Shown: positions 864 through 64,000, counted from the stretch's first letter. The stretch: 64,000 bases of DNA from Leucoraja ocellata (GCA_036785375.1 JAWMAR010000061.1:3162001-3226000); one strand, 5' to 3'. A program made the numbers and translations. The notes: a model not told the origin generated them from the letters alone.

Positions 864-1066
864 GTGTAGCAAAGAACTGCAGATGCTGGTTTAAATCAAA
901 TGTAGACACAAAATGCTGGAGTAACTCAGCGGAACAGGCAGCATCTCTGGAGAGGAATGGGTGACAGTTTGGGTGTGACTGAAGAAGGGTCTCGACCTCA
1001 AACGTCACCCATTCCTTCTCTCCAGAGATGCTGCCTGTCCCGCTGAGTTACTCCAGCATTTTGTGC
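864..1066. mobile_element. Palindromic Penelope-like (PLE) terminal-repeat insertion with degenerate hammerhead motif
   Basis: ~70-bp inverted arms (905-974 / 994-1065). CTGAAGA...CAAACGTC at 979-1006. Flanking direct repeat ctgg(g/a)ttgattaa at 851-863 and 1067-1079. Confidence 0.85.
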
Positions 1067-1412
1067 CTGGATTGATTAAAATGCTCAACTGGAATAAACA
1101 GCAGTCATAAAGAAAAAATGTACTGTACAAAGATTATTGATGCAGCAAACAATTAATGCCATAGCAACATAGCTAAAATATTAAGATCATACATTGGAGA
1201 CTAAAACCACAAGCACATCCTCAGAGCTGCAAGTTATTACAGCCAAATGCCATTACCATAACATGTTTCACACACCAATAATAGTTCTTCACAGATCCTC
1301 GTGGTTTAACTAATACAGAAAAAATCCTCTTCACACAGGTAAGTTCTACAATTATATTGCCCCATGGAACCACTCTTGGGTTTAAAACAGGCACAGGCAA
1401 AAACTTCAAATT

Positions 1413-1488
1413 AAAATGCTTATATATTTAAATATGCTTATATATTTATATAAGTATATATTTATATATGCTTATATATTTAAATATT
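1413..1488. repeat. AT-rich minisatellite (~18-bp unit atgcttatatatttaaat)
   Basis: Three to four imperfect tandem copies visible directly. Confidence 0.75.
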
Positions 1489-1824
1489 CTAAATTCATCA
1501 GACAGTTAATACTAACCATTTTCAGATTGGTTCTGTACTATAATTTTCATTCCTTCTTGCCGGACTCAAATCAATTACTTTAATTAACTTCATGTTGTCT
1601 GCCCACAGAAGGTTTCTTTGTGAGTGAATACAGGCGTTTCAGAAAGGAAGACGACTGCAAATCAGTCTAATCTTCCTCTCTCCGGATCATCAAGTACACT
1701 TTCCAAAATGTTCCATTGGTCACTTGATGGCAAATGAATACAAATATCCTGTCTGACGTTTGTTTCCCCCCCCCCCCCCCACTCCACCCCAATTTTCTAA
1801 TAACAATGAGACTCGTCTATTGTT

Positions 1825-1971
1825 TAAGAAAGAACTGCAGATGGTGGTAAAATCAAAGGTAGACACAAAATGATGGAGAAACTCAGCGGGCGAGGCAACA
1901 TCTATGGAGAGAAGGAATTGCCGACGTTTCAGGTCGAGACCCGAAACGTCGCCAATTCCTTCTCTCCACCA
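1825..1971. mobile_element. PLE terminal-repeat insertion, partly palindromic
   Basis: Same family motif (gaactgcagatg...gagaaactcagcggg...gacgtttcaggtcgagacccgaaacgtc). TSD agactc(g/a)tctattgtt at 1809-1824 and 1972-1987. Confidence 0.8.
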
Positions 1972-2984
1972 AGACTCATCTATTGTTCCAAATCAGGATC
2001 AGTGTGTTTGTAATAAACCATATATCAACCAGACTATCAATTAAATCTGTTTGACTCATTATGAGATCACAGGTTGCAATAAATCAAATAAATCTTCAAG
2101 AGCACTGTCCTACTTCAAAAAACATGTGAAGTTCAAAAAATCAATGCCACATGCTGATGAAAGAAATAGTTTCATGCTTTGAATTGAAAACCTTTATGTT
2201 TAAAGCACAAACAGTGAACATATATAACTGGGAGCCTCAACATATCTGATTGCAAAGTTAAACACCACTAGTCTTTAATGGAGACACAAGAGACTCCAAA
2301 CACTGCAATTTTGAGTAAAGAAAATACAAATGGCTGGAGGAACTCATTAGTTCAGGCTGAATCTGTGAAGTGAAATATTCCGATGATGTTTTAGGTTAGC
2401 ATCTTTTCACACTGATGGGAGTAGAGAGGAGATAGCTGGTTGAAAGAGTGAGGGAAAGGTATAGGGTAAGAGCTGGAAAGTGATAGTGTAGGAAGGAGCT
2501 ACAATCTGAAGAAGGGTCTCAACCCAAATTGTCACCCATTCCTTCTCTCCAGAGATGCTGCCTGTCCGGCTGAGTTACTCCAGCATTTTGTGTCTATCTT
2601 CACTGGGAAGTTACAGGTGAGTCCAGGTAAGGAGGACTATTGGCATAGGAGAGGAGTCAGGTGGGGAAAGGTAAATAAGGCTGGTGGTAAGTAGAGAAGA
2701 CAATAGGGTGCAAATCACTCGCTATAAGATCTTTGGTGCAAATGGCCACATCTGATAAGAGAGGAACGTGGGGAGTGAAATAGAGAGCTAAAGAGTGAGA
2801 TGATGGGAAGAAGGGAATGCCCTTCTTGGGGGTGGGGTGGTGAGTAAAATGAGGGAGCCAGATCAGGGAGAGCAGCTGATGAAAAGATGGAGATGGTAGG
2901 AAAGGGGGAAAACTGTAAAGTGTGGAAGTAAAACTAATGAAAAGGTTTTGATGAGGCCACATCTGGACCAGTGTGCAGAGCATA

Positions 2985-3400
2985 CATCCATTTACTTAAG
3001 GAAAGATGTTGATGCATTGGCAGCAATTTGGGGTGGAGGTTTCTGAAACTAATACCGAAACAAATGAGTTGAAGCATACAAAGGTCGATGTGGAGAGGAT
3101 GATTCCTAGTGTGCGATTCTAGAAACAGAAGTCACCTTTAAAATTATTGAATTGCCCATTTAATACAGACGAGGTTATTAATATATTCATCTCAGTGTTG
3201 AGTATCTATGGGACACTCTTTAAAGCGCGGTGGTGGAAGTATCTGTGAATATTCCAATGGTAGAGATAGATAGATTCTTGATATGCAAGTGGGTTAAAGG
3301 TTACCACGGGCAGAGTTAACGTTACAGTCATGTACAATCATGTTGAAGAGCAGAGCAGGACTGAGGAGTTGTGCTCCTTCTATAAGGACTCCTGCACATA
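2985..3400 (+). mobile_element. Degenerate CR1 LINE 3' fragment
   Basis: Decayed match to the CR1 3' text seen more intact at 20185-20660. Confidence 0.55.
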
Positions 3401-4243: not shown

Positions 4244-4722
4244 TTTTCCATTATGCAAACTTATTTGTGCAAGAATATGAAATATTCTTTTTTTGCATTA
4301 AACCATTTTTCAAGCAAGCAACAATAAAGTGTGCAGCACAAAGAGTCCAGAACCTATTATTTTTTTACTTTCAAAACCTTCAATACATAACATGCTGAAC
4401 ACAAAGAATATAATGTTACCCAATTCTTTAAGACAGAATTAATAGTTGTGAAAATATGATTTGATTTTTAAAGGGATTTGGGCACAGCCAACAAGGACAG
4501 AAATTAATTCTCATCCGTAACCAAAGTTTCTCAGTTCAGTCATTGGAAAGTGCTGGATCAGGGCACAGGGCAGTGATGGTTTTAAGGTCATGCTTTTTCT
4601 GGCTCTTCAACAAAAAAAAATCAAACCACTTCTGAGATCACATCAAGTAATTGTGGCAAAATATAATGTACTTATGCAAATTGATGCAAATAAAAATCTC
4701 TGCCATTTTCAAATCAGAAGAA

Positions 4723-4820
4723 GGTAAACAAAATTACCGGAGAAACTCAGCGGGTGCAGCAGCATCTATGGAGCTAAGGAAATAGGCAACGTTTCGGGCC
4801 AAAACCCTTCTTCAGACAAG
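4723..4820 (-). mobile_element. PLE terminal repeat with intact hammerhead core
   Basis: Reverse complement reads CTGAAGA AGGGTTTTGGCCC GAAA CGTT (4788-4815). 12-bp TSD aaatcagaagaa on both sides. Confidence 0.8.
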
Positions 4821-5576
4821 AAATCAGAAGAATGCTGGCCGACTGAAAATATTGGCATATTCACCTTTTCCTTCTCTCCATAGATGCTGCCTCACCAGCC
4901 GAGTTTCTCCAGCTTTTTTTTGTCTACCTTGGAATTGCTAAGTCAGTTTTATACTGTTGCTGCTTTTCTAAATTTTGAGATGTTAGTGGATTTCAATGTC
5001 ATTTCCAAGGAAGTTATTTCACACTTTAATATTTCCCCCAAAACAAATCTTGCTCTTTTCCTTTCTAACAGCATCGTTATCTCAACAAGAGGCTTTTGTT
5101 CTGTAAAAGTCAAGGATTCCCACAGTTAAATTGATTTGTAGACGTAGTACAAGAAATTTCCATGCTCATTGTTCAGTCACCACTAACCATTTCTTAATCA
5201 TGCAATATGGTCAAGTGTGCAGATACTTTCATTTTTTAATATACAATGTTACTGGCTGCAAAAACAATCTGCACAATACAGAGAATGGAATAAAGGCTCC
5301 ACTTCCATATCTAGTCGGTCACATTTCATCGTTTACAATTACTACAAGGATTCAATTAAAGCTTCTCACTGCTTCACAAATGGTTCAAAATTATGTTCCT
5401 CTCAAGCAAACCTTATCTCTTTACATTGTCCTCTTCACTGGCACAATAAAATAAAAGTTGCAAACTAGAGGCCGAAAATCCAAGCATCTTTTATTAAATG
5501 CAAAAGACAAATGTTAAAATCTTCAACTGTGGATAAAGAATTTAAACACAACACCAAGAGCACATTATCTCGAACA

Positions 5577-6500: not shown

Positions 6501-9500
6501 TTACACTGTTCTTGATGAACAGTGATGAATGTAGGTAGCTATAGGCCACTAGACACTTCAGCTTGCACTGCTTGTTGGCACCATATGGTGTAATCATAGC
6601 AATGACTTCAAGTAATGATCTTGAAAACAGTTAAGATACCATGCAAGAAAATTCACCTAAACATTTGTAATTTAGTCAGGTTGAAAGATGCTGCATTTCC
6701 AAATATATTTCCATAACCTGAAGGTCATTACTGATCATTGGCTCAAGTAGCTGGGGAATATTCAACAAACGATCCCCAGACATTATAACAATCTTGCATT
6801 CAGGAAATTATGTCTATATAAGAAACTGAACATTATAAGCTGTAGAACAGAAGGTAGAACCATATAAAATGTCAAATTATATTTATGACTTTATGACATT
6901 TTTTAAACTGCCAACTAAGGGAAGCATATTAATGTTATAAGTGTCACAATAAACTTTCCTTGTTGTGTATTGTGTTGAAAGAGTATCTGACATTGAAGTG
7001 AAGAGACAAGATATGGCTTCTCAATTAACATAGGGGTCATATTAGACGCATACATTCTAAACTTGTTCTAAACACTTGGGGAAACGGTGCGAGCTGGGGT
7101 TGGGTCGGCAGGTCGGTCAGCCCTGTCTGACATGTAATATAAGGGGGTCGTTAAAACAAGGGTTTACTGTATTGTCCTTTTAGAGAGAAGACAGTGAGGA
7201 GAGAAAATTGAGAGCAGAGTTGATTCTTTCACGACGGAGGAACACAACCGGAAAGAGCGATCGCCACTCGCAACGCCATCTGTGGCTGCTCAGGGAATTT
7301 CAACTGAGCTTTCGTAATTTTGTCTGGATTGTTAGGGTGGCGAACCATCAATTACCACAACGGTTACAACCTGCACCACATTTCAAAAAATTACAAAGAA
7401 TGGGATTTTTAGATTCTACAGTTACAGATTCTTGTAGTCCTTTTATTGTTTTATTTATCTTTGCTGTTTTTTTCCTTCTTCGACACTCGCTTGGGGTGAG
7501 GGATAATTTGCTTCCACTCCAGTTCTGTAATATCGGGCATGACCAATGAGGCCAATGTGGAATCCACAAACACCCATTGGTAAGACAGATGTCAATGCAT
7601 GCATAACCCCAATTAAAATGAAAAACACCAATATGAAGTCACTTCATTTTATTTTAATGAATCCATTTGTCTTGTATTGTGTATTTTTTCTAATGGCGAA
7701 ATATCTGCATTGGCTAAAAGGTGGAAAAGCAGCACTGTGTAATCAAAGCTAACAAAATAGGTTACAATTGGTCACAAAGCGACTCAACCAAAAACGTCGC
7801 CCATTCCTGTTCTCTAGAGATGCTGCCAGACCCGCTGAGTTACTCCAGCATTTTGTGTCTATCCTAGTTTACAATTGCTCATTGACTTAAAAAGCAACGC
7901 TGGTATCACGATTAATTTTCACTTTCAACACCAGGTGGCGCCGTACATGGCAGCCTCGCCGACAGCCTGCCTCGTCCCTTTCTTCCTTTGTTGTTTTTAA
8001 ATGATATTGATCATGATGCTTTGGTAACAAATTCTGATAACGCAACACTTTATTAAGTTAATCTGAGGGTCTTCGTATTTTACCCAAAAACCTGTGCAAC
8101 TGAAATTGCTCAAAACTGCAATATTTAATAAGAAATACCACAGCTGATTTTCAAACATTAAAAAAGGCGTAAACGCCTGAAATAGATGTGGAATTGCTTC
8201 ACAGGATAATATTTATTTTGTACACATAACAGACATATTGTTAACAAACCATTTTGAGGAACGGATCTTATTTGCATTTGCCAAATGCAATGCAAGCTCT
8301 GAACCAATTCCCAGTTCATGAATTGAAGGGTTTGGGGAATATCTGAATCTCCTGGTGGTTTTAATATAAGGATGCTGAAGGCAAAAAGTAGTTGGCAAAA
8401 ATATTATAGACCCATGAGGACTAGCCTCATATTAAAGCTGGTGCATTTTGTGGGTGTTTTTAGAGAGTTAGTACCTGTCCATTCATGGGCCATTGGTCAA
8501 CCAGTGCGCAGACCATACCTAGCAGCAGCCTGCTCATTGGTACATGTTAATTATATAGGTAGCAACAAACAACGTAGGACTCGAAATAGCTTATTAATAG
8601 AAATCTGCAAATGAAGGATATCAGCTGCTCCTTTCAAGTTCAAGGACAGATTTAAAAAAAATGGTGACAACCATGTCCAGTGATACAAAGCTGGAAAATA
8701 GAGTACAATAGGTTTCAGGGTACTGTCACCCCATTCCCAATGGCGATGATAACCAGCACTATCTCTGCATCAATTCTCACTGATTTTCCAACATTCTCTA
8801 TTGGAGAAGTATAGGTATTTAATAGCCAGCCATAATTATAAGTGTAATTTTGGAGTTATACAATTTCTGTTTCATCCAGAAATGTATGTAAATAATATTA
8901 TGTGCAAGTTAATGCTATCGATATTTATACAGTACTTCAGCAACAGTTGCTAAATATAAAAATGCATACCACAAATATTGTACTTTAGATCCATTGGACA
9001 TTTTATACTATTTGCCCGTCTGAAGGTTTAATTAAAAAGCGCATTCAATGACAAAAGACTTCAATCCACATCACATAGTCACATTCATAATTAATGTAAT
9101 GGACGCTAAAATTCAAAGGCCATGGAAATGATAAAAGAGAATTTTTGCCAACAACTGTTCAGCATCAAATTACTGGTGTCTAGACATATCAGAATGTACT
9201 TTAATACTTATTGCAATTTACATGCCTGCCTAAACAGTCTGATGGCCTGATGCCATTCAACAGCGATACCCGCTACCGATTCAACAGAAATGTTAGTAAC
9301 ACATTTATGCTTGCAGTACTAGCGACATCATATAATAGATTTCCAAGTTTGACAAGGTTTCTCTTTAATGACCTGAAGCCCAGAAGTTCAATGATCAGAG
9401 GATAATAATATTAAAGAGACAGGCTGGAGAATTAGCAAATAGGTAGCAAATCAGACTTAAAACGTTGAGAATTTCTAAATTTTAATAGAAAGAAAGAGAA

Positions 9501-9559
9501 GAGGGAACATAAACAAGATTGCACAATTTAAAAAAAGGTGCAACAACAAAGAGATTAAG

Positions 9560-9940
9560 GGATGGATGAGCAGGTTGAGACACTGGTAATGCATGTGGTA
9601 CTCCTGGGTTTTATAAATAGAATAAAACACAAGTGCAAAGAAGTCACAATGGACTTTTAAAAACACTGGGTCAGCCATATGTGAACTTGGCCGTATAACT
9701 GCCACATTTCTGGAAACTCTTTACTGAATAAACAGAGGAGATTTACTGAAATGATTCCAGGGCTAAGGGAATTTAGCTCTGTGGATAAACAGATTAATCT
9801 TGTATTGTTTTTCGTGGAAAGGAGGATTTCAAATGGATCTGGTAGTTATTTAAAATTATACAGGTACTGGAATGAATAGATTCAGGTAAACTGTTACCAT
9901 TGGTGAAAAGGCCAAGAGCAAGGGGGAAATAAAGATGGGA
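9560..9940 (+). mobile_element. Highly degenerate CR1 LINE fragment
   Basis: cagaggagatttactgaaatgattccaggg (QRRFTxMIPG) CR1 ORF2 C-terminal motif. Confidence 0.55.
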
Positions 9941-10074
9941 CAAGCTATAAATTGCACTTTTGTGATTTAGTTTCTGCTACATTGACAATTCACGTCAAGT
10001 TTCTACAAGGAAAAATATCCAAAAACAAGAAGCCAGAAGGCTTCCTTGAACTGGCGTAATATGATTATGAATAA

Positions 10075-10700
10075 TCTTTTCCTTCATGTCCACCTCTGGC
10101 CAAAAGACAAAAATCCATACATCTCAGCCTTTAATCTAACAAACGACTGAGCAACCAAAGGCCACAACTCCCAGTATGGACCAATAATGGAAGGCATCTC
10201 AAAGCACTCGAGAATACAAACAATATTCTCTCTACAAAGCCCTACAAATCCATTGGCTGGGAAGTGAAGCAATATCAGTGTTCTCTCCCAAGCCAACATC
10301 CGCCACACTAAGGCACAGTTGTTAAACAGCTCTGGCACACAAGCTATATTGTCTGCATGCTTGACATCATCCTTGTAAAACCAGTATTTTCAGCCAACCT
10401 TTGACACAACCAGGGAACTCCAGGAGGAAGAGGAAATGATTCAAGGATGTTCCCAAACTATTCTTGAAAATAATGCAACATCCTGAACACAAGGGAATCA
10501 AATGCTCAAAATAAAGGAAGAGCACCTGGAAAGTCACCATGCACCTCGAGTCTCCACAATAGAAGAAGTAATTTTCAAATTTACAGGGTTTATGAGCAAC
10601 AACAAACTACCTACCAACTTGCTCCACCAAGCTCCTGGCACATCACCGACAGATTCCACTTTAGAACCAGAGTTAGAACAAACGAACCTTGATCTTGAGG
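10075..10700 (+). mobile_element. Degenerate RTE-clade LINE ORF2 3' fragment
   Basis: Broken frames give WT...RHLKALE, SNISVLSQANI, IVCMLD, FKDVPK, resembling the RTE C-terminus. Confidence 0.65.
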
Positions 10701-11434
10701 AACAAGATACGTTTAGATTCATGAACGAGCACAAGAAGATCCTTCTGTATGATCACATATACTCGTTCTTCATTGTTTAAAGCAGTATTCCGATTGTCCG
10801 TTTTCCCATTTAAGACACAAATTTAAACTCCATCTACCCACCTCCCTCCTCATCTGTTATCTTTGTATATCTCATTTTACACTGGGATTTTCCCTCATTT
10901 TCCTACCTAGCTTTGTATCTCCGGCACATAGGGATACAGCGTACTGTCTCCCAATTTAGGAATACAGCATAGTCTCCCAATTAAAGTTATTTATATCAAT
11001 TAAAGTTGAAGCATACGACATATGCACATGACACTGCATTAATTAACAGTTTGCAAACATGAAAACAGTATGTTTATTCTTAGTTTGTTTTCTGGGTATA
11101 ACCATTCTGCTATAATCGACGCATTGATGAACCAGGATGGTGTGGACATGGAGAGGAGTGGTCTTCCCACATGTTGGGACTCTCACCCTCCATGATAGAG
11201 GGCACATATTGTGAATGCTTTGATACGATGCAAAATGTTAAAATGAAAGAAGAGAAAGATGAAAGAAGAGAAGATGAAAAAAGCAGACAAACACCAACAG
11301 ATAAATATCAAATGACAAACCTGGTACGAGAAAGCCTCTTTCAGTTTTATTTGCACCAAAGAAACAGACAGAAAGACTGAAAGATGGACATAAGTATGAT
11401 TCTTTTCCCTCTTATTCATCAGCATCCAATATGG

Positions 11435-12215
11435 AAAGCCAAAAATAGACAGATTGCTGGAACAACTCAGTAGGCCCAGCAGTATGTCTTCCAGAACAGA
11501 GGAGACGTTTCAATAGAAGGATCCCGACCCAAAACACCATCCATCCATGTCCTCCACAGATGCTCAGAAGTTCATAAGTCTTAGGAACAGAAGTAGACCA
11601 ATCGACCCATCGAGTCTACTCCGCCATTCAATCATGGCTAATCTATCTTTCCCTCTCGACCCCATTCTCCTGCCTTCTCCCATAACCCTTGACACACTTG
11701 CCAATCACGTATCTGTCGATCTCCGCCTCACAATACCCAATGACTTGGCCTCCACAGCTGTCTGTGGCAATGAATTCCTCAGATCAACCACTCTGACTAA
11801 AGAAATTCCTCCTCACCTCCTATCTTTTATTCTCTCCACATTTCCATCATCACTATCGTTTACCTACACACTAGGACAGTTTATGACAGCCAATTAACTT
11901 TCTCGCCCACAGATTCTGGGGGTGTCGGTGAAAAACAGAGGTTCAGGGGAAACATATGCAGTCATGGGGAGAACTTACAAACTCCTCACAGACTGTACCG
12001 AAGGCCAAGACTGAACCCGGCTTCACTGGTGCTGGGACACTCAGTTGCCAGGGTTTAGTAGCAAAATTGCCCCTAGCGTAACGTGGTATAGAGGATGGGG
12101 TGTAAATTGGGTAGAATGTGGTGAGAATAATAGGATTAGTGTAAATGGGTGCTTTGTAGCAGGCATGGACTTGATGGGCCAAAGGGCCTGCTTCGCTACA
12201 GCATCTCTCTATAAT
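11435..12215. mobile_element. Nested cluster: PLE terminal repeat, CR1 3' end (-), V-SINE fragments
   Basis: Each segment matches a family seen elsewhere in the window. Confidence 0.65.
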
Positions 12216-13052
12216 TCAACGACAAATAAATCTAGTGTATTTTTCAAACAGATGAAGAACAGGTGCAAGGGTAAAGATCTGCTATTTTATTGTTGAGTTG
12301 ATGTTTGGTTGCCTTCTTATTCCTATTCACTTGTGATTTGCATTTCAATGTGTTTCCTGCTGTTCATATCCTCGATTAGATTTGAAACATCTGGAAAACA
12401 TTTCCTTTATACTCCCAAACTTTGGCAACTACAATATAGTTTTTCCAGTTTTATGGAGCCCCAGGGTTTTGAAAGCCTTTACATCAACACAGGCATCCCT
12501 ATCTTTTTATATGATAAAAGAATACGGCAAGAACAAACAAAAATCGTTTAGGTTTATTTTTGTCACATGTGCTGAGGTACAGTGAAAAGCTTTGTTTTGC
12601 ATGCTATCCATACAGATCAGGTATACCACACATGCATACAATCAAGTCAAACTCAACTTGATCGAGCAAGAGGAAGATACGGAGTGCAGAATATAGTTCT
12701 CAGCATTGTAGTGCATCACATCCATAGTCAATGTGGAAGCTCCAATGTCAATTGTCCACCAGCATATATCATCCTCTCCACTTCTTAAATCAAAATCTGA
12801 CACTTTTTTTTTGGATTTGTTGCTCTGGTTAAGCATTTCCCTCCCTAGAATTCTGCCAAAATTTCTGTCAGCAGTTGAGCTGCTGAAGATAAAAATTCAT
12901 CTCGGTGGACTACTTTTCAAGCCACTGATGACTCGTTTCAACTACGCAATTAAGTTGGCAGTTATGTAGTGCACAATTTTAAAACATCATATAAGGAATG
13001 CCAGAGATCAAAGTAAGTTGTAAATGGTATGAATGAACAAGGTACTGTAGCT

Positions 13053-13269
13053 AAAGATAGACACAAAAATGTTGGAGTAACTCAGCGGGACAAGCAGCAT
13101 CTCTAGAGAGAGGGAATGGATGACATTTCGAGTCTCAGTCTGAAGAAGGGTCTCAACCCGAAACACCACCCATTTTTTTTCTCTCCAGAGATGCTGCCTG
13201 TCTCGCTGAGTTACTCCAGCATTTTGTGTCTATCTTTGGTGTTATCCAGCATCTGCAGTTCCTTCCTAC
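13053..13269. mobile_element. Palindromic PLE terminal-repeat insertion
   Basis: ~80-bp inverted arms. CTGAAGA AGGGTCTCAACCC GAAA at 13140-13163. 16-bp TSD acaaggta(ct/tg)gtagct at 13037-13052 and 13270-13285. Confidence 0.85.
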
Positions 13270-13639
13270 ACAAGGTATGGTAGCTTTTTGGTTGTGATGG
13301 AAGATGCTTATATTTAAATATGGCCTTGCCTACCTGCTGCTGCACACAAGAATGAAACCGTGGTTGACTTACTTAATAGGAAACTGAATAGCACAAGGAT
13401 TTCAAATATTCTAAAAGTGACACCAAGTACAACACTGAAAATTAAGCACAAAAGAGAAGAGACAATGATGATGATTTTTCATTCCAGGATTGTACTATCA
13501 TGTGCTTTCTAACATGGAAAAAGGTATTTGTTCAAAAACCACAAATTCACTTACATAGGTTTATCAATACATCAAGAATATTTGGCAGAACTATAGGAAG
13601 AGAAATGCTTTAACTTATATCAAATTAAATGTAAATAAG

Positions 13640-18250: not shown

Positions 18251-18274
18251 AAATCAGGAAACAAGGACCTAAGG

Positions 18275-18827: not shown

Positions 18828-18870
18828 AAGATTAATTCTACAATATTTTTGAAAGAAAAAATCTGTTTTT

Positions 18871-48030: not shown

Positions 48031-48034
48031 GGGG

Positions 48035-52386: not shown

Positions 52387-52741
52387 TATATATCAACCCA
52401 AGCAAATAGTCAACCTTGAAAGTGATGCAAAAAAAAATCACTGTTTGCTTGATGGTTAGTTTAGACTGGAGATAAAGATAAATTATGAGTTTGTGTCACT
52501 TTGAATATTACTACATTATATTCATATCAAATCTAGAAATTATCACTCCCTGCTTCTAAGCAGCATTTGTTAAATGCAGGGAAGGAGAATTAAAATTTCA
52601 GGTGACATTTTCTACACAATGGACATGACCTGTAATATTACAATATTTATATTGTTTGTGTTAGTAGCATTTTTTACAAATAACTTCTGTTAAAGGTTCA
52701 GTTACTGCATATAGTTGCTATATATCAAATGCAGGTGTCTA
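52387..52741 (+). repeat. Local direct duplication, copy B (likely source)
   Basis: Matches 48175-48514; flanked by unique sequence. Confidence 0.95.
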
Positions 52742-53774
52742 CTGGATTATGTGATCACAACTATGGAACCACAATTAATGTTTGCATGCAATGCGACGGA
52801 AATCCTCATGAAACCTATCCAGTAATTTCCAGATATATGGATGGGGAACTCAAGAGGCAAGTGTGTTAAATTGTCATATGGATGGGCAGCAGAACAATTA
52901 AATTCTTATTTTCTGCAGCTTAACAGGCCCATAAATGTAATGAGGTTAAAATCATCTCACATCTATATAATATGATCCCCACATATAAACAGCCTGCCAA
53001 CATCAAGATTCCTGTAAATAAGACAAAGTCCAAAACAAATTAAATTAATCAAACTCGCACGGGTAAATGCTTTCAGGAGTTAAGGAGGAATAGAATGGGC
53101 AAAAGAAACATTATCTTTCAAACCACCATGCTGTACCAGTACAACACAAAACAACAAATGTCATTGCAATTTCTCCCTGCAAAGTTTAATTTAGCTATAG
53201 CTGTGAAGCGGTGCTAACAGACTGTATAAATCAAATCAAATAAAATAGCTTGTCCAAAATGGAAACGAATTACATCAAGACACACATAAAGCAGGTTAAG
53301 AGAGAAAAACAAGCAAAATGCCATCAAATCATAATTGACATTCTAATTACATGTCTGGCTTGTTTTGTGAAGCCAATCAAGAAATAACAACTGTTCCAGT
53401 GATGTTCAGCTGTGAGCAGCAGAGAAATGCACCCCATTCATTGACTTTCACATATTAGATATGGATTACCACATATAATTAACACACTAAAGCACAATCT
53501 AAGGTTTAATTTCTATTTATTGATAGCAACTCTGAAAAACACTGCAGAATTGTTATCAACCTGGCCGCTTTATCTCACAATTTAAATGCAGAAATAACAA
53601 TTCTCTTCCCCTTTGTTATTGAATTTGCTTTTAGATAGGCACATGGATATGCAGGGAATGGACAAGTATGTTTCATGTGCAAGCAGATGAGATCAGTTTA
53701 TCTTGGCATTGTATTCAGAATTGACATTGGGGACCGAAGTGTCTGTTCCTGTGCTGTATTCTATTTGTTTGTGC

Positions 53775-54941
53775 ACCATGCGTGCCCTCTCATCCATTCT
53801 CAACAACCATAGATTTAGGTTTTCACTTGGGAACCAGGCCAGCTCTGTCAGGACCCTGAATGATGGTCTCCCCCAAGGCTCTGTCCTAGCTCCCCTACTC
53901 TTCAACATTTATGTGAGTGACATGTGAACCAGCTCGTCCAGGAAGTTTGCATATGCAGATGACCTTACCCTTGCCTACCTGCAACTGCCCATGAGGATAT
54001 CAGCAGAGTGCTAACCCAAGACTTGGAGGAGCACTTCACCATCTAAGACAACTTTCATCTCAGCAATCGGCTCGCCAATGCAAAGCTCTGAGTGTCCTTT
54101 TGTGGTAAGCCGGTGAAGAATGAAGAATTCACCAAGTACCTCAGAGTCACCCTGGATCGTACTCTCACCTATCGTAAACACCTGAAGAGGGTGGCCGATA
54201 AACTGAAAGCAAGGGTGAACATCATTAGGAAACATGCAGGCAACAGCTGGCGATTCAATGCACACATCCTCCGTACTGCAAGCTTCGCCCTAGTCTGCTC
54301 AACAGCCGAATTTTGCTCAACATCTTGGGCTAATATCTGCCACACTGACACTGTCCTTAACTCTGCAATGCGGGTCATCACAGGGACGCTTAAATCAACA
54401 CCTTTCCTCTCTCATATCATACAGCATATATAGAAGGGAGAGGATGTTGAAAGATTGGTGCACCATCGAGGCTAACCCTGACCTTCCCATCCATGCTGAC
54501 TTGAACAATCTGCCCAGCAGTGCCTGAAGCCCGGCAAAACCTTCTGGTCTTCCGTTAAATCCCTGGAAGACTTTGACTCCAAGATTGAGTGGCGCAGTCT
54601 GGAAAGAACCTGGAAACACCAACAACGGAGAAGTCATCACAGGCCCCACAGTGAAACCACCGGGTTTTGACCTACAACACAAGCAATGGCTAACTCTGAA
54701 CAGAGTCCGCACCCTCCTTGCAAGAACAGCCCATCACCTGCATAAGTGGGGGATGACAGACAGCCCTGCTTATGAATGCGACATCCAGACCAGACCATAC
54801 CCACACATCGTGAATGATTGCCCACTGAGGCTTTCCCTAGGGGCATCAAAGCCGTCCACTCAGTAACTGATGCTGTCATGGCCTAGATGTCTACCCTTGA
54901 TCTACAACTTTAGGCTGTGCACGCCATATGCATGAAGAAGA
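53775..54941 (+). mobile_element. Vingi/Ingi-clade LINE, 5'-truncated, frameshifted RT and C-terminal zinc-knuckle region
   Basis: GLPQGSVLAPLLFNIY; FAYADD; KYLRVTLDRTLTYRKHL; LRTASFALVCSTAEFC; LNRVRT..HLHKWG..SPAYEC..HIVNDCP; gccata...gaagaag 3' end. Confidence 0.85.
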
Positions 54942-54959
54942 TGTGCGGTATTGGTCTAT

Positions 54960-55164
54960 GTATAGGAAGGGATTGCAGATTCTGGTTTAAACCATAAATA
55001 GACACAAAATGTTTGAGAAACTCAGCAGGACAGGCAGCATCTCTGGAGAGAAGGAATGGGGGATGTTTCAGGTCGAGACCACAGTCTCCAGACTAGTCAC
55101 CCATCCCTTCTCTCCAGAGATACTGCCTGTCCCACAGAGTAATTCGTGCATTTTGTTTATCTTC
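54960..55164. mobile_element. Palindromic PLE terminal-repeat insertion
   Basis: Inverted arms; flanking gtattg(g/t)tcta duplication. Confidence 0.8.
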
Positions 55165-55759
55165 TGTATTGTTCTAAGTTGCATGTTCTAATTCACCAAA
55201 TTTCCACATATCGACATACTAATTTCAGTGTTATCACTGTGTCCATTTTTCTAAAGGTCTGTTGGGAAAGGCAGATCCCACTGTAAGGCTAAAGCTATAT
55301 AACAATAACTGCATGTGTAAATTGCTTCGAAACCGTAGGAAGGTACTTTGTAGAAGTTTTATCACGTTAACTTTGTCACCTGAGGGTCTGAAAGCATTGT
55401 CTATTATTGGTCTCACAGCAGGAAACCTAGATAATTGATCCAGAGCTACATTTGAATCTTGCAATGGTAGCCGGGGAATTAAATAAATCTGTAATTTAAA
55501 ATGTTAGCATCAATAAAGATGTTTGTAAAGCTACTGGATTGTAATAATAAAAATGCTGGCCACTAGTATCCTTCAGGGAAGGAAATTTTCCATCCATTTC
55601 TATTCCCAAACCCAACACCATAGCTCCCTGCAAATCTCTCAGTTTGTTGGCAAATTAGGAGCAGACAACAAATGGCAGACAGAACTGATAACAGTGGGAT
55701 GATGCAGAAGATTTTAGCTTTCAATCTCAATCTGTGCTGAATTTATTGATCACAGAAAA

Positions 55760-56820
55760 AAGATGCATTTATATAGTGCCTTCCCCAATTGATTTGTATC
55801 AAATTAAATAAGTATTTTTGAATGATTATCATGGCAATGTGGGAAATTATAGCAGTCCGTGTTAATTTGTACACATCAAAATTCTCAGAATGAGCAATGT
55901 GCTAACAATCAGATAATCTGTTTTTCATGATATCAGTTAAGGATAAACATTGGCCAGGACACCTGGGAGAATCCTGTTCTTCTTCAAAATAGCATAGCAG
56001 TGCAACCGATAATGTGGCTGCCTCGTATCTCTGGGGAACGGAGTGTAATTCAGAATTTGAGAGCTGTCTGTGTGGAGTTTGCACATTCTTCCCAAGTTTT
56101 CTCTGGTGTTCTCTCTAAAGATTAACTGCCTACTGTAGATTAATTGGCAAGCGTAAATAGCTTCTTGGTATAGATAGCAACAAAAATAATCAAAGGGAAG
56201 TTGATATGCATGAGAAAAAAGGGGAGTGAGACTGCATTGCTCTGCTGAGAGCTGGTGCAGACCTGATGGTCTGAATGATCCTCTCCTGCCAGGCTTTGTC
56301 CTGTCCTCTCTTCTGGCATTCCTCCCTTGCGACCCCCCCCCCCCCCCCCCCATAATCTGTGTGAAGAAGGGTCTCAACTGGAAACGCTGCCTATCCATGT
56401 TCTCCAGAGATGCTGCCTGACCCATTGAGTTACTCCAGCACTTTGTGTCTTTTTAAAATTTCAAAAGTAATCAATTGGCTCTGAGACAGAATGCCTTAAA
56501 GTCGTTAAAAGTGCCTGGAAAAGGCGCATTTTAGAAAACCAATGCTGTGTTTTAGTAATTCATTTATCAACATAAAATTAAGTTTCTCCTCACAGGGTAA
56601 TAAATAACATGTTGACAGGGAATCTTTAACATCCACTTGACAAGGCAGATGGGACCTCAGCAAGTGTTTTATCCACAAGATTACACCTTTGACAATGCAG
56701 CAATCCTCCCAAAGCAACCCAGCATTGGCAGCATCAATTGAGGTTGTGTCTTTAGTCCCTGAGATGGATTTGAACATCCCTTTCATCTCAGAGGTGAGAA
56801 TGTTATCAACTGGGCTATGA
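55760..56820 (-). mobile_element. Ancient Deu-domain SINE (SacSINE1/AmnSINE1-like) pieces separated by younger V-SINE and PLE insertions
   Basis: ggataaacattggccaggacacctgggaga (55940-55970) and gggaatctttaacatccacttga...gcagatgggacctc...ttgaac...ctcagaggtgagaatg (56618-56820). Confidence 0.6.
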
Positions 56821-56937
56821 ATGACAAAATAAGTGCTCTAATTATTGACTCCAGAAGGGAAGCTAATTGACCCAAGAGGGGAAAATTAAAGACAGCTAAT
56901 GTTTCTGCTTTATTACTTCTGAAGGACCGCACATGTA

Positions 56938-57222
56938 AACATAGAAACATAGAAAATAGGTGCAGGAGGAGGCCCTTCAAGCCAGCACGGCCATTCATTG
57001 TGATCATGGTTGATCATCCCCTATCAATAACCCGTGCCTGCCTTCTCCCCATATCCCTTGACTCCACTAGCCCCTAGAGCTATATCTAATTCTCTCATAA
57101 ATCCATCCAGTGACTTGGCCTCCACTGCCCTCTGTGGCAGGGTATTCCATAAATTCACCACTCTCTGGGTGAAAAAGTTTTTTCTCACCTCGGTCTTAAA
57201 TGACCTCCCCTTTATTCTAAGA
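56938..57222 (-). mobile_element. CR1 3' end
   Basis: Reverse-complement homologue of 20385-20660, with (TTCTATGT)n tail. Confidence 0.9.
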
Positions 57223-58237
57223 TTTTTATATAAAATATGCCCACGTCCTATTCGGCCAATATGCTGTTTGTGATCATTGAGAAAATGGACAACATGAGTG
57301 ATAATATATGGGTAATGTCAGTCCATGGTTGAATAGACTAATGTCACTTTCTGTCTGGTCTTACAAGTGAAATATGTGCACTGAGGTAAAATATGGGGCT
57401 GTCAATATCCATAAACCATTTTTACAGCAATAACCACCACCTCCATTCAAAGCGATGATGTAAATGTTCCAGCTCAAAACTCCATGTGTTAAATGCATCA
57501 GTGCCCACAATTTTCCCCTGAGGAGAAGCTGATATTTACATGGATAAATCAATTACTAAAACACAGTATCAGTTTTACTGTTCACAGTGTGTCTGAACTG
57601 TTTACTGAAAATAATGTGCGTTTTTAGGGCACTTTTGACAACCTCAAGGCTTTCTGATATCTCAGAGCCAATTAAATACTTTTGAAGGACGATCAATGTG
57701 GTAATGAAGAGAAAGATTTTCACCAGTTTATGCACATTTAGTTTGATGCCAGCAACAGGGCTCTGTCAGTAAATGAAAAAGTGTCCAAGGCACCCCTTCT
57801 TAAAATGATACATGTGTATATAGAATCTTTCGGAAAACAGAATCCAGAGAAGGAATGATAATACAAAAGTACATTACAAATATATTTATAATACAAAAGA
57901 GTGTGGTGTAATATTTATTACCTTAAGAAATGTTCTGCTCAGAGTATTATTATTTTTCTAAAAATGTATTATTCTTTTTCAGAATGAGAAGGTCACTGGC
58001 TCTGTCACCACTGTGGTTCTGGTAATAATGCTACTGGGAAGGGAGTTCCAGGATACACATCATCAATGATAAAGAAGCAAAGATATGCTTCTAAGTCAGG
58101 ATGGTGAGCGACTTTGTCATTGGGATAGGATAAGTCTTTGATCATGTTGGCTGCTTTCCCGAGTGGAGTCCGGGTCAGTTTAGGTTTAAGAATTTTGGCA
58201 CGTGCTAAGGTATAACGAAAAGCTTTGTTTTACATAC

Positions 58238-58664
58238 TGTTGAGTAAATCACACATACTAGGCCATTTTTACAAAAAAAGAAACCATTTCATTAAATGCT
58301 CTTGAGCCCGTGGGAATCGCTCATTCCCAAGGCAGTCTGCGCACCTGTTAAAACATGAAGATTCTGATATCAAGTGCCAAGAGCTACCAGCACCTCCTCC
58401 GGTTACTCTCCACGAGCATGAAGATAACAGTCATAACATACACTCCCTGGTTGATCCAACTTCTGACACCATGTTGAGTAAATCACACATACTCACAAAT
58501 CTGGTATAACAATATTTATTGCATATCGTATACAACACACAATAGCATGTTACTCCTACCATGCAGCACATGATGGCTTGCGATAATATGAATGGTGTGG
58601 TAGTAGGTGGGGCTTATAATAATAAAGCACTACATTGGTTAGTAAGTAAAGTAACCAATCTACA
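58238..58664 (-). mobile_element. Internally deleted LTR retrotransposon (Gypsy-like)
   Basis: 193-bp 5' LTR TG..CA (58664-58472) with AATAAA. PBS TGGTGTCAGAAGT immediately after it. 22-bp remnant of the 3' LTR end (58238-58259). Flanks catac/cacac. Confidence 0.85.
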
Positions 58665-60814
58665 CACACTAAGCAAACAGATCACATGTACCGTACATAG
58701 ATACAATCAGTTCAAACCCAAGGACAACAGAAAGAGCAAAGAAGAAGAGTAACTCATCGGGACAGGCAGCATCTCTGGAGAGAAGGAATGAGCGACGTTT
58801 CGGGTCGAGACTCTTGACCCTTCTTCTCGATCTGAAACACCACCCATGCTGAGCATTTTGTGTCTATCTTTGATCATTTCGGCTGCTTTTCCGAGGCAGT
58901 GTGGTGTAGGTTGAATCAATGGTGGGAAATCTGGTCTATGTGATGGACTCAGCTACATCTGCAGCTCTCTGCAATTTCTTGCCGTCTAGGGCAGAACTAT
59001 TCCCAAAATCAAGCTATGATGCAGCCTGACAGTATGCTTTCTATGGTGCATCTGCACGGATGTGTAAATGCAATCAGAGTAGCCATGGAAAATTGCAACT
59101 GTGTGATTGTAACTGGTACACATTTGGAATAATATGGTATGAGAAAGATACCGATAGATGGTTCCCTGAATCCACTGGGTAAAACAGATCTTCTCTTTCT
59201 GTTTCAATCTGGTTTAAACAGCATAGTGAAGCTGACACATTTCAAGCATAGCAGCCAGGATGATTCACAGGACAAAACCAATGTCCTTCTGTTTTCTATA
59301 TTGATCCTTGTAATCAAAAAGCCAATGTTAATTGACCATGAAGAAATGCAATATGAACAATCCATCAAATAATCTCAGAGTGGTCCAACATTTAAATTCC
59401 TGTGACTGCTTCCATTTAGTTCTGATTTTTTGCTAAATATAAACCATACTGTTTGTAAAGTCAAACTAAATATTACAGGAAAAAAGAGTCTGTCACCACC
59501 ATGAAACACTTTAATATAACAATTTAAATATCTCACTCTTATTAGTCACTGAAGTATTACAATATAGATGAGTCAAGTATGTACTAACTGTATGAAAAAA
59601 GGAATCCCCACTCTTTCTTCATAGCCCTGTAAATCTTTCTTTTAGTTACTATCCAGAAACATTTTGAATATTACAGTTTAATCTGCATCTATTACTACTT
59701 TTGCATTGCATTACAAGTCCTAATTTCCAGTATATATTTAAAAATACTACATCTCTTTTAGTTCTTTTGCCAGTCACTTTTATTTATTTTATGTCCCCAG
59801 GTCTTAATTATTCTGCCAAAGGGAACACTTTAAGAAAGTAAGAACTAGGAGCAGTAATAGACCATCTGACCCTTCAAAGCTAATCCACCATTCATCAAGA
59901 TCAAGGCTCATCTTCAGTCTGAAGAAGGGCCTCAACCCAAACATCACCAGTTACTTCTGCACTTTGTGTCATCTTCTCTCAGCTCCATTCTTCTGCACTT
60001 TCCCTATATCTCCTGTTTTCCTTAATATCCAGACATCCATTGATTTGTTTTGAATGAACTTAAATCCCCTTCAAGGCACAGATATGAGTTGAGAAATTTC
60101 TCCTAATTTTATGATTAAATGGCCTACCCCCTAATCTGAGATTGTGTCCTCGTGTTCTAGGTTCCTAAAATGGAAAACATCCTCCCTGCATCCAGTATGT
60201 AGAGTTTGTTTCCATCTGCTCTTATATCAGATCATTTATGTTCCAAGAACAACCAAGGCTGTATCACTCTAACCACATAAATCAACTCCATAATGCCTGG
60301 AATCAGTCTGGTAAATCTCTTCTGTAAGCAAAAGACAAAGTGCTGGAGGAGCTCAGCAGGAGCTCAGCAACATCTGTGGAGGGGATGGACAAGTGACGTT
60401 TCAAGTTGAATCCCTTCTTCAGAATCTTCTGTGCCTTCTCCAAAGTTATCACATCGTTTCTGAACTGTGGTATCCAGATCTAGGCATAATACTCTACTTG
60501 CGGCTCAACATGTGCTTTATAAAGGTTTATCATGTAGAGACAAGGAACTGCAGATGCTCGTTTACAAAAAATCTAAAGGCATAAAGTGGTGATAACTCAT
60601 CTGCTCAGGTAGCACTTTACCCTTTATCTAGAGAACATGGATAGGTGACTATTTGGGTCAGGACCCTTCTTCAGACTATATTTTGATTGCTCCACTGCAA
60701 AATCTCTTCCAGTTATGCCAACTTTGAAGAAGTTCTTCCTCCAGTATGAAGAAGGGTTCCATCACAAAATTCCACCTAGCCATGTTCTCCAGCACTGTGT
60801 CTTATTAATTTTTA

Positions 60815-60874
60815 CTAGACCATGTGCAGACCCGTTGGGTCTGTTCCTCCAACGCCCGGTTGCGGTGGGGGGCT
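60815..60874 (-). mobile_element. Helitron-like 3' terminus
   Basis: Hairpin CAGACCC-aac-GGGTCTG, 8-nt spacer, terminal CTAG followed by T on the minus strand. Confidence 0.7.
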
Positions 60875-61005
60875 CTGTGTCTTATTAATTTTTATAAGGC
60901 TCTTCATGTCTGTCGTGTACTTGCACTCTTTACCTTTCTACAAAGCCCAGAGTCCACACTCCTTTTTTAAGAACGTTTTCAAACTGCCTTGCATCTCTCA
61001 ATAAA

Positions 61006-61268
61006 TCAAGTTCAAGTTCAAGTGAGTTTATTGTCACGTGTCCCTGTATAGGACAATGAAATTCTTGCTTTGCTTCAGCACACAGAACATAGTAGGCATT
61101 TACTACAAAACAGATCAGTGTGTCCATATACCATAATATAAATATATACACACATGAATAAATAAACTGATAAAGTGCAAATAACAAAAAATGGGTTATT
61201 AATAATCAGAGTTTTGTCCGAGCCAGGTTTAATAGCCTGATGGCTGTGGGGAAGCAGCTATTCCTGAA
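61006..61268 (-). mobile_element. Rex1/L2-group LINE 3' end, (CTTGAA)n tail
   Basis: Inverted near-identical copy at 62488-62759. Confidence 0.85.
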
Positions 61269-61669
61269 TTAGCTATAAATGATGTACATCTAACCACAGA
61301 CCTTTGTTCTTGCACCACTTGTAGAATTATATCCTCCAGCTTATATTGTCTTTTCTTCTTCCGACCAAAATATATCACTTTACATTTTCTCAGCATTAAT
61401 CTTCATCTACCTGCCTGTCTGCATCTGCTGGAGTCTATTACTACTATCCTCCTTGCAGTTCACCTTACCTCCAACTTTTACATCATCTGCAAGTTTAGCC
61501 TTGATCTTTACATTACCCTTGTGATAGAAACATACTATGAAAACAAAACAAGCATGTTTTGGGGCAATTATTCGATGCATTGCATGTACATAAACTTTAG
61601 AAAGTAATTCAGAAGACAAGGAGGACAATCTCTCTGCCATACTGACTGTGGATCATGGGAGTGTAGTTT

Positions 61670-62130
61670 TGCTTCACCTTTCGCACCCGTCTAGAAGTGA
61701 GCCAAAGGTTGACATAAACTACAACTCCCGGCAGCCTTCACGGCCGGCGGGTGATCCGGTTAAAAGACACAGTTGGCAGCTCTACCGCCGACACAAAATA
61801 ATCCGGCAAACATTTCGCCCGCGAGTCTGACATCGACAAAAGGTGTACGCCTAAGATTTAAAAATAGTCAACATGTCAGTAAAATATAATCTCTCCGCTG
61901 AATAAAATATGTCTTTGACATGTTCGCAGGGTGGCGGTTGACAGTTGGAAGTAGTTCCGCCGGTGCGGAGGGAGTTTGCAGCCAGTTGCAGGGTGAAGCG
62001 GTGCTGCAGGGTTCCACGCCATTTTGTTCATTTGTGGAACCCCCCCCTCTAAGGAGCAGAGTGCAGCCAATAGTTGGAGGGCGGGCGGCTCTCTTGCAGG
62101 TCAGTGTGAGATCCTGCAGAGCAATGACCT
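61670..62130. promoter_or_regulatory. Second CpG-enriched, housekeeping-type promoter
   Basis: ACTACAACTCCC ZNF143/THAP11 motif (61718-61729), YY1 CGCCATTTT (62017-62025), CCAAT (62067-62071), GC box (62076-62085), possible donor CAG|GTCAGT at 62099. Confidence 0.7.
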
Positions 62131-62487
62131 TGACTGTCTCTAAACTTTCTCTTTCAAATAAACCTTCTCATCCATTCAGAGAGAGGGGGGTTAATGGGGC
62201 AAAAACACTAAATCTCATTTTCTCCCCAAAATATAATTCCTGTCTTAAAAGCTGATCAAAGTATTTGTTTGCTCTGACATTCCATCTCTACGTTTTATAC
62301 CTCACTTGTCTTTTTATAGCTATGTCTGTGGCTGTCATTACAAGGCCAGCATTTATAGTCCATCCCTAATTGCCCTCAAGATGGAGATGGTGGTGGTGAG
62401 TTGATTTCCTGGACTGGTTAGTGTGGTGAAGGTGCTTCCATAGTGTTGTTGGGTGAGGAGTTTCGGGATTTAGACCCAAGACTGCAA

Positions 62488-62759
62488 CAACCAGGCTCAG
62501 GAATAGCTACTTCCCCACAGCCATCAGGCTATTAAACCTGGCTCGGACAAAACTCTGATTATTAATAACCACTTTCTGTTATTTGCACTTTACCAGTTTA
62601 TTTATTCATGTGTGTATATATTTATATCATGGTATATGGACACATTTATCTGTTTTGTAGTAAATGCCTACTATTTTTCTGTGTGCTTAAGCAAAGAAAG
62701 AATGTCATTGTCCTATACAGGGACACATGACAATAAACTCACTTGAACTTGAACTTGAA
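62488..62759 (+). mobile_element. Rex1/L2-group LINE 3' end, (CTTGAA)n tail
   Basis: RLRNSYFPTAIRLLN terminus; inverted partner of 61006-61268. Confidence 0.85.
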
Positions 62760-64000
62760 ACCATGAAGGAACAGAATATAGATGTTCCAATGAGGATGTT
62801 GCACTTGGCGAAGAACTGTTGTTGTTATTCGCAGGTGCCTGTGGCTTAATGGAAGAGGGTTATAAACCTGTTTAAGAAGGAACTGCAGATGCTGGAAAAT
62901 TGAAGGTACACAAAAATGCTGGAGAAACTCAGCGGGTGCAGCAGCTTCTATGGAGCTATAAGGTTATAAACCTTACCTGCGGCAGTTAGAGTGCACACCT
63001 GGTGGTTGTAGATCATCTGGCAATTTGATCAGATCAAAGGTGTTGCAGAAAGGTCAGAGTCAGTAGTGCCTGCCATTGAAGTAGGAGAACAGTCCAATGG
63101 AATAGTGACAATCTTTCCATTGCGACTTTAGATTCACTTGACAGAATGATCTCACTCTTGCATTGTGGCCTGCCTTTGAGCATCAGATTGGTGCAAGTCC
63201 ATAACAATGGGGTTGCTCTTCCCTTGTTACGAGCATCTCAAGGTAAATTGTGTTGGATTTTTCTGTTAATCTATCTGGAATTGCCCTTTGCGATATAGAT
63301 TCCAGTGCCAAGCCACTTTATAAGTAAACACATTTAAGTGCCCATTTGTCTGGATTTGCCGCAAATTGCGTGCGAATGGCTGCACAAAATAGTGACATTG
63401 ACCAAATTAGTGTTGAGCTGCAAGCTTGCCAGATGTGGCTAACTGCATTTTTGATTATAATAAAAATAAATGAAATATACTGTAGTTAATCTTATGAATT
63501 CAGTGTTTATGTTGACATGATACATGTTTGCACATTTGAAGCTTTTTGTTGTTGTTTCTGGTAAAGTCTGATGCAAAACAATGTGCAAAGTTTTGTTTGA
63601 TCGTTGTTAGTCCTCAGTTACTAAATTCTGGTGTATGCACATGTGAAATGTATTACTTGAATTATTTCACTGCATGCAAGATATTTTCTCACATTGATGC
63701 ATGAAAACTCAAAGGCTTTGCTCAGTATGTGTGGTTGGTGTTTTGTAACCTCTTGTTCATTGCATTGAATACAGATTAATATGCTTGAAATATGAGGTTC
63801 AAACAAGGTGATTCTAGGTTTTTCAAAGTTTTATTCAGACCTCTCCTGCACAGTAATAACCACATCAAATGTCAAGTTCACATATTTACAGACACTATGC
63901 TTCCTTCCTATTTTAAAGTAACTAATTTATGAAGCAGAAACAAGCAATCTACTCTGAGGTAATGTCCAAAGAGAGGTTGATGTATGAATCCTTCATTATC

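Follow-up and report, generated by a model that had tools for sequence, protein, structure and literature searches.

Short Penelope-like insertions with an ordinary minimal hammerhead in a 64-kb window of Leucoraja ocellata: probable truncated and often inverted remnants of a Neptune-type element

A stretch of 64,000 nucleotides (nt) from Leucoraja ocellata (GCA_036785375.1 JAWMAR010000061.1:3162001-3226000), referred to here as the window, was analysed to follow up an original prediction, made from the sequence alone, that it holds a dense family of Penelope terminal repeats bearing hammerhead ribozymes. Our analysis indicates that these repeats are 5′-truncated, often inverted remnants of the pseudo-long terminal repeat (pseudo-LTR) of a likely Neptune-type Penelope-like element, and that their hammerhead is an ordinary minimal one that probably decays neutrally and would not cut host RNA. 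We put the probability of this reading at roughly 0.8.

The extent of the family was determined with a profile that was built from five copies, rebuilt once, and used to search the window for repeat arms. This search recovered 39 arms, with no match in the reversed window. The arms were grouped by script into 27 insertions (28 once one merged group was split by eye), which occupy 5.5% of the window at a density of about one insertion per 2.3 kb; the predicted presence of more than 20 insertions with a common terminal repeat was thus borne out. A strict core pattern matched three times in the window (0 matches expected from 100 shuffles) and recovered all three cores described as intact, at 4788-4815(-), 27082-27109(+), and 37169-37196(-). 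The copy at 60395-60422(-) preserves both boxes and has a broken stem II, as had been claimed, and decayed copies were present at all nine positions named for them (979, 2506, 13140, 18738, 33905, 39040, 42700, 59918, and 60650). The statement that many arms carry the full motif was an overstatement, because both boxes are spanned in only 16 of the 39 arms and unchanged in just 4.

The repeat is linked to GIY-YIG endonuclease remains in the sequence and likely represents the 3′ pseudo-LTR of a Penelope-like element of Neptune type. In three copies (18736, 39038, and 23741), endonuclease sequence is followed by a pyrimidine-rich untranslated region (UTR) and then by the start of the repeat, and this order identifies the repeat as the 3′ pseudo-LTR; in the native arrangement, endonuclease, UTR, and hammerhead are followed by another ~70-110 nt. 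Coding remains lie at 18275, 23483, 26543, and 41016, with shorter pieces at ~37200 and 38760. A homologue search with the endonuclease frame at 26543-26953(-) gave 15 matches among 233 candidates (best 7e-46), and the frame was 56-66% identical to proteins of Hypanus, Leucoraja, Mobula, Rhincodon, and Heptranchias, which points to a ray or skate as the likely host. A C-X4-CxxC linker finger was found in 6/6 aligned relatives, and a CX2-5CxxC linker finger is a mark of Neptune and Nematis elements (PMC8557442). Reverse transcriptase is present in relatives (P0012, PF00078) and occurs in the window only as a decayed, separate fragment (41016-41652). Three points weigh against this assignment: the Pfam GIY-YIG match of the 26543-26953(-) frame (E 3e-4, 21.4 bits) falls below the Pfam cut-off of 22.6, the first cysteine of the linker is a serine in the window copy, and the window holds element fragments only, with neither a full-length element nor a transcript or cleavage product seen. 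Taken together, the endonuclease linkage and the published motif marks agree with the predicted identity, namely Penelope-like pseudo-LTRs carrying a minimal type I hammerhead with a palindromic stem III.

The hammerhead itself was then compared among copies. The family majority contains the CUGANGA and GAAA boxes and a UH triplet, a set that is complete in 3 copies. In 23 of 24 arms, positions 9 and 10.1 are separated by an extra unpaired A before stem II; the G10.1-C11.1 pair is formed in 15 of 16 copies. In place of a loop III, the majority has a palindromic CG (15.2-16.2), which is retained in 16/35 arms and has been lost mostly through CpG-type changes. All marks published for the minimal type I hammerhead of Penelope-like elements (PMC4209133) are found in the family majority. 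Stem I comprises 2 base pairs (bp) both in the native context and at 4788, whereas the 37169 core has 3 bp and the 27082 core none; the predicted length of 2-3 bp therefore holds for 4788 and 37169 but not for 27082. The third stem I pair is unpaired in 12/15 copies. The predicted GUC cleavage triplet likewise held only in part, the triplet at 4788 being GUU.

It had been proposed that a stem I this short marks an atypical lineage whose ribozyme is trans-completed or inactivated. Our comparisons instead place it as ordinary for the class. In the published alignment of minimal hammerheads, helix I is 2 bp long in Culex, Oikopleura, and three Drosophila species, and 3 bp long in pufferfish and cichlids (PMC4209133). 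Metagenome contigs scanned with a pattern derived from the window yielded at least 119 loci with 113 distinct cores, look-alikes that may or may not belong to Penelope-like elements. Among the matches listed, to which all look-alike counts refer, stem I measured 2-3 bp in 51 of the 113 distinct cores (21 of 57 when counted by family), and it reached 3 bp or more in 65/113, compared with ~9% in a partner-swap control. These contigs hold at least 57 minimal hammerhead families, and 28 of the 119 loci have an inverted arm of their own. Completion in trans is no special property, since it equals the published dimer model. Inactivation does fit most genomic copies, through CpG decay. In active-dimer modelling, the three intact cores lay 4.3-8.7 kcal/mol above two monomers, compared with a median of 9.3 for 109 look-alikes.

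Two null results count against the hammerhead assignment. Searches of Rfam found no hammerhead family in the window (E up to 5) or around two intact cores (E up to 10), and the proposed check by Rfam hammerhead models therefore did not support the prediction; these models presumably need longer stems I and III. Moreover, stem covariation in 16 decayed window copies was not above that of shuffles (190/500). The percentage paired in the stems of the same 16 copies was far above slid controls. MicroRNA-type Rfam matches in the window proved to be the inverted arms, lay below the family cut-offs, and were rejected. Published minimal hammerheads are reported to show no activity as monomers and to cleave weakly as dimers (PMC4209133), and the hammerhead of the anole element requires an element protein (PMC11167929).

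The anatomy of the insertions was examined through their arm ends. Ten insertions are head-to-head inverted pairs, which the earlier reader had overlooked, and none is tail-to-tail; both minus-strand intact cores (4788 and 37169) sit in such pairs. The 3′ ends of arms fall at columns 94-113 (16 arms) or at column 120 and beyond (15 arms) with none between, the remaining 8 arms being shorter. A long tail occurs on one arm only in 8/10 pairs and on both arms in 0/10. Inverted 5′-truncated copies and a one-sided tail of 30-40 nt have been reported for Penelope-like elements (PMC8557442, PMC3846280), and in the anole element the tail reflects two start sites of reverse transcription (PMC11167929). 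At 1909-1964, stem II itself is the centre of symmetry, an arrangement that fits the self-priming proposed earlier (PMC3846280). We suggest that the element protein would nick target DNA, that reverse transcription would begin past the hammerhead at either of two sites, as demonstrated for the anole element (PMC11167929), and that copying would proceed toward the RNA 5′ end, with most products short; two products, or a fold-back at stem II, would then yield an inverted pair. In an active element, the ribozyme would likely act only weakly, with help from protein, and only when two pseudo-LTR copies dimerise via the ACGU palindrome.

The age of several insertions could be bounded with contigs of two related organisms, which were ~2.7% (organism B, 241/8800 letters) and ~4.3% (organism C, 351/8094) diverged in the pieces compared. 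Contigs of both relatives connect unique flank with the arms at 27082, 31849, and 33934, and those of organism B also with the right arm at 37321; these orthologous joins mean that the insertions predate the split. The relatives' contigs break within the repeat, and both part from the window sequence at 36987, to the left of the 37169 core. The two best-preserved cores, within 26960-27109 and 37169-37310, have a nearly identical junction to an inverted linker fragment, and this similarity suggests that both may derive from one chimeric non-autonomous template.

For mapping of 5′ ends, the native UTR was added to the profile and columns were numbered such that C3 is 3. Among the 39 arms, 4 extend into the UTR, 17 begin at columns -7 to 5 (12 of them within -3 to 3), 11 at columns 6-26, 1 at columns 27-34, where the cut site lies, and 6 further down. 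Of the 21 arms that reach the 5′ box, 17 stop at columns -7 to 5, compared with 3.7 expected from the stop rate of columns 6-35 (p 5e-10); from that same rate, about 3 starts were expected near the cut site and 1 was observed. In native copies the core is directly preceded by TCAGT, a match to the initiator consensus. Penelope is known to have internal promoters of the initiator type (PMC2377424, PMC3846280). Given this pile-up at the 5′ edge of the ribozyme, with almost no ends at the cut site, the template RNA was likely uncleaved. The simplest reading, in which copying runs off the 5′ end of an uncleaved template that begins at the initiator ~3 nt before C3, has in our view a slightly better than even chance, and such a start would limit stem I to 3 bp. 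It agrees with the anole study, in which unprocessed RNA was the main template in vitro (PMC11167929).

Some observations reduce confidence in this account of the template. Among the 17 edge starts, one is a palindrome artefact, two have a common junction, and for ~6 the upstream DNA could be the UTR of another subfamily; the 10 clear 5′ junctions alone still give p 0.0009. Among the matches listed, an initiator-like motif precedes the core in 13/57 look-alike families against a 12% background, which is a weak enrichment, and the two largest look-alike families lack a fixed 5′ boundary there, extending well past the core. Separately, the cut site was not among the best-supported loose-end piles listed, and a pile at 27082 was expected anyway. 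Branch-point stalling was considered as a cause of the pile-up and rated low, the acceptor-like site being ~49 nt away. As separate observations, the endonuclease-UTR copy at 23483-23741 ends at column 2-6, about where many arms start (one case), and columns 33-54 (e.g. 27112-27135+) hold a pyrimidine tract and a YAG ~20 nt past the cut site, followed by an ATG. The YAG site scores as a strong 3′ splice site in 27/27 spanning arms, and its median score ranks among the best 1% of AG sites in the window; it may serve the element itself as an acceptor, or be a cryptic one for host introns.

The same 5′ ends would also accommodate a more elaborate scheme, which we consider unlikely. Here the hammerhead would be the first 30 nt of the transcript, forming a promoter-ribozyme module, and the short insertions would be strong-stop-like complementary DNAs (cDNAs) made in a cycle of 3′-copy cleavage and strand transfer. 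With the initiator 3 nt before C3, promoter and ribozyme would be dual-coded; cDNAs would start at the tail site and reach the capped 5′ end; when the 5′ and 3′ pseudo-LTRs pair, cleavage would fall mainly on the 3′ copy, producing a 30-nt terminal redundancy; and this redundancy would let a short cDNA jump to the RNA 3′ end, like a retroviral R region. If true, the arms would be a fossil record showing what Penelope hammerheads do in vivo, a role that has been stated to be unclear (PMC8557442).

It is also quite improbable that the short arms form a separate derivative resembling a short interspersed nuclear element (SINE), that is, a non-autonomous unit with a fixed 5′ end, transcribed and mobilised as such. 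The 12 starts within columns -3 to 3, the excess of arms (39) over coding remnants (6), and the one chimeric junction common to 27082 and 37169 would all be expected of such a unit, and Penelope-derived tandem hammerhead retrozymes have been reported in one chondrichthyan (bioRxiv 10.64898/2026.07.22.740005). However, inversion junctions vary between insertions, the unit forms no tandem array, the same pattern recurs in several subfamilies, and three arms are joined to coding fragments. Truncated and often inverted pseudo-LTR remnants remain our preferred reading of the short arms.

Next, the loss of cores was considered. The general base of the hammerhead is G12 (PMC6155905), and both G12 and the stem III palindrome lie in CpG sites, in surrounding DNA with a CpG ratio of ~0.3. 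G12 is retained in 16/32 arms, and 13 of the 16 changes are G>A. A neutral-decay model predicted 2.2 intact cores among 16, and 3 were observed. The scarcity of intact cores is explained by the CpG context of G12 and of the stem III palindrome, and the hammerhead cores likely decay neutrally after insertion. Against neutrality, non-CpG core positions are better kept than the flank (146/156 vs 711/843, p 0.002), which in a pre-set check upheld the expectation that core boxes are more conserved than flanking repeat. We read this retention as reflecting past constraint on master elements together with alignment-edge bias, given that flank subfamily differences and that bias both inflate the core-flank gap; it may instead be selection on copies.

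The original prediction further proposed that a host pre-mRNA made from a promoter at 47.7 kb would read through sense-oriented cores. A CpG island does lie there, and its three donor-like sites (47679, 47584, and 47578) are all on the minus strand; a leftward host transcript is plausible from these sequence features. No host exon was identified in the window, and no recognisable coding exon in the 47 kb beyond the island, which may be the promoter of a gene with a long first intron or of a non-coding gene. A Pfam scan covered 506 of the 571 open frames of at least 45 codons (the omitted 65 are minus-strand frames right of 47.7 kb); the scanned frames yielded the GIY-YIG match, a single reverse transcriptase fragment, and four weak matches below their cut-offs. 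Structure-bank and homologue searches for host-gene candidates in the window gave no match, and a rough splice model of the window gave no convincing exon chain. The candidate exon at 29644-29826 was rejected, its sole match, P0016 (a limpet repeat protein), being a sum of weak repeats, and its bin being multi-copy. In the presumed RNA run X7, reads covered repeat bins and unique bins were uncovered, so that this run is uninformative on expression.

That intact sense cores cleave such a pre-mRNA, completed in trans, and act as intronic regulators is very unlikely, although the strand of the donor-like sites, the location of 2/3 intact cores on the minus strand, the great abundance of the family, and the modelled dimers of isolated cores (4.3 and 8.7 kcal/mol above monomers, reference median 9.3) would all be in its favour. 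In leftward RNA the antisense arm would precede each sense core and is predicted to pair with it: the predicted stem II probability in the inverted context is 0.002 at 4788 and 0.08 at 37169, and the insertions holding these cores have folding z values of -11.6 and -10.3. The two sense cores are also separated by 32 kb, the count of intact cores fits neutral decay, and the arms to the left of the island are evenly split between strands (14 minus, 15 plus; low power). Furthermore, published minimal hammerheads are weak even as dimers (PMC4209133), and the anole one is protein-dependent (PMC11167929). With no exon, and with cores paired by their own inverted arms and far apart, the proposed effect on a host pre-mRNA finds no support, and by these models inserted hammerheads likely leave host RNA uncut. 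Two simple reasons why a host can carry many intronic copies are the decay of G12 at its CpG site and the pairing of inverted arms with each other.

Finally, a ribozyme dead even in the master element, its boxes persisting as DNA-level promoter or protein-binding signals, is highly improbable: the 2-bp native stem I with its mostly unpaired third pair (12/15 copies), the near absence of arms beginning at the cut site, and the initiator-like motif adjoining the core, with an ACGT palindrome 27-30 nt downstream at what we take to be the expected spacing of a downstream promoter element, would suit it, but catalytic positions, bulged A, and G10.1-C11.1 are all kept across subfamilies, and 65/113 look-alikes among the matches listed have a stem I of at least 3 bp vs ~9% after partner swap. 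A downstream promoter element with an ACGT core has been described (PMC2377424), and 2-bp helices I occur in the published set (PMC4209133), the latter again arguing against a dead ribozyme.

Table 1. Element-derived features and the candidate host promoter in the window.
Position	Strand	Feature	Remarks
864..1084	both	head-to-head pseudo-LTR pair	decayed core at 979
1818..1968	both	head-to-head pair	symmetry centre is stem II (fold-back signature)
2287..2611	both	head-to-head pair	native pyrimidine-rich UTR on minus arm
4705..4936	both	head-to-head pair	contains 4788 core
4788..4815	-	intact minimal hammerhead core	GUU triplet and stem I of 2 bp; in left arm of the 4705-4936 inverted insertion
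11433..11564	both	head-to-head pair	decayed
13048..13278	both	head-to-head pair	decayed core at 13140
18275..18860	+	endonuclease 3′ end, UTR, damaged hammerhead, pseudo-LTR	native order
23483..23741	+	endonuclease 3′ end and UTR	stops just short of hammerhead core
26540..27087	-	linker with zinc-finger remnant and GIY-YIG endonuclease fragment	
27082..27109	+	intact core without stem I pair	arm 27081-27217 joined head-to-head to endonuclease fragment
37060..37413	both	inverted insertion with internal linker fragment	contains 37169 core
37169..37196	-	intact core with stem I of 3 bp	in left arm of the 37060-37413 inverted insertion; 5′ junction common with 27082 copy
38557..38729	both	head-to-head pair	diverged subfamily
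38760..39159	+	endonuclease last codons, UTR, decayed hammerhead, tail	hammerhead at 39040
41016..41704		decayed reverse transcriptase-thumb fragment (-)	head-to-head with short pseudo-LTR arm (+)
47001..48000	-	CpG island, candidate host promoter	GC 0.55, CpG observed/expected 0.98; outside element
54955..55170	both	head-to-head pair	plus arm is the sole arm starting near cut site
56286..56460	+	arm with native UTR	decayed core
60395..60422	-	both boxes kept, stem II disrupted	
60541..60792	both	head-to-head pair	decayed core at 60650
within 7777..62958		other solo arms	7777+, 31849-, 33934-, 36395+, 37665-, 40645-, 42699+, 43785-, 51683-, 58826-, 59917+, 62956-

Several other features were noted in the window. 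Long inverted arms at 61006-61267 and 62497-62758, 94-96% complementary, flank ~1.2 kb, and the whole (61006-62758) looks like a young non-autonomous DNA transposon, to judge by sequence. The region 53691-54866(+) holds remains of a reverse transcriptase (RVT_1 E 9e-6) of a long interspersed nuclear element (LINE), which we presume to resemble Vingi elements. A second abundant repeat family (20379-20623, 34917-35110, 48035-48690, and 56947-57222; 77-90% alike) presumably represents HER1/CR1 LINE 3′ ends. Also present are a GC-rich stretch at 44001-45000 (GC 0.53, CpG observed/expected 0.78) with a 208-codon open frame without Pfam match, two 216-nt copies (48249-48464 and 52461-52676) that are 95% alike and 4.2 kb apart, and a decayed purine-rich tandem-like repeat at 49481-50700 with a spacing of 60-73 nt.

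Compared with known systems, the family and its hammerhead belong to known classes, and they extend Penelope hammerheads to a cartilaginous fish, at high density. The minimal hammerheads of metazoan Penelope-like elements (PMC4209133) are alike in CUGANGA, the extra base before stem II, G10.1-C11.1, GAAA, the palindromic CG replacing stem III, the UH triplet, the pseudo-LTR position after the endonuclease, and the many solo and opposite-strand copies; the window's 4-bp stem II and 2-bp native stem I lie at the short end of the published range, and the published alignment rows compared differ in including no cartilaginous fish. With the Neptune clade of endonuclease-bearing elements (PMC8557442), the family has in common a C-terminal GIY-YIG, the CX2-5CxxC finger, 5′ truncation, an inverted arm, and an optional one-end tail; unlike that clade it is represented by fragments only, and its placement, which follows the linker finger that Neptune and Nematis have in common rather than a reverse transcriptase tree, is a probable one.

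Non-LTR retrozymes (bioRxiv 10.64898/2026.07.22.740005) are similarly non-coding, carry a type I hammerhead, derive from Penelope pseudo-LTRs, and include one chondrichthyan genome. However, their defining trait is a head-to-tail tandem arrangement in which every unit bears a hammerhead, whereas the window copies are dispersed or inverted, and no head-to-tail hammerhead array was found among the 12 tandem-repeat rows of the window. The domesticated intronic hammerheads of amniotes (RECK and CTCL introns; PMC6155905) resemble the window's in being type I and possibly intronic, but they are full ribozymes with tertiary contacts, whereas those of the window are minimal, multi-copy, and decaying. 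In literature searches, whose coverage left most subscription papers outside, the family was not described in work on Penelope in sharks, skates, and cartilaginous fish, nor was the 5′-end pattern reported in work on start sites, strand transfer, and intron bias. The closest parallel for the ends is the Poseidon element PAc of the green anole (PMC11167929), in which two reverse transcription start sites likewise give the tail, both DNA strands are nicked and extended, uncleaved RNA is the main template, and no reads lie at the cut site; PAc belongs to another clade, lacks the linker finger, and in the available text is not described as having a 5′-end pile-up at the ribozyme edge. The useful part of the present analysis is its map of insertion ends: an arm-rich genome allows 5′ ends to be counted at the ribozyme edge vs the cut site, and the ends in the window point to uncleaved templates, in line with the sole in vitro study (PMC11167929).

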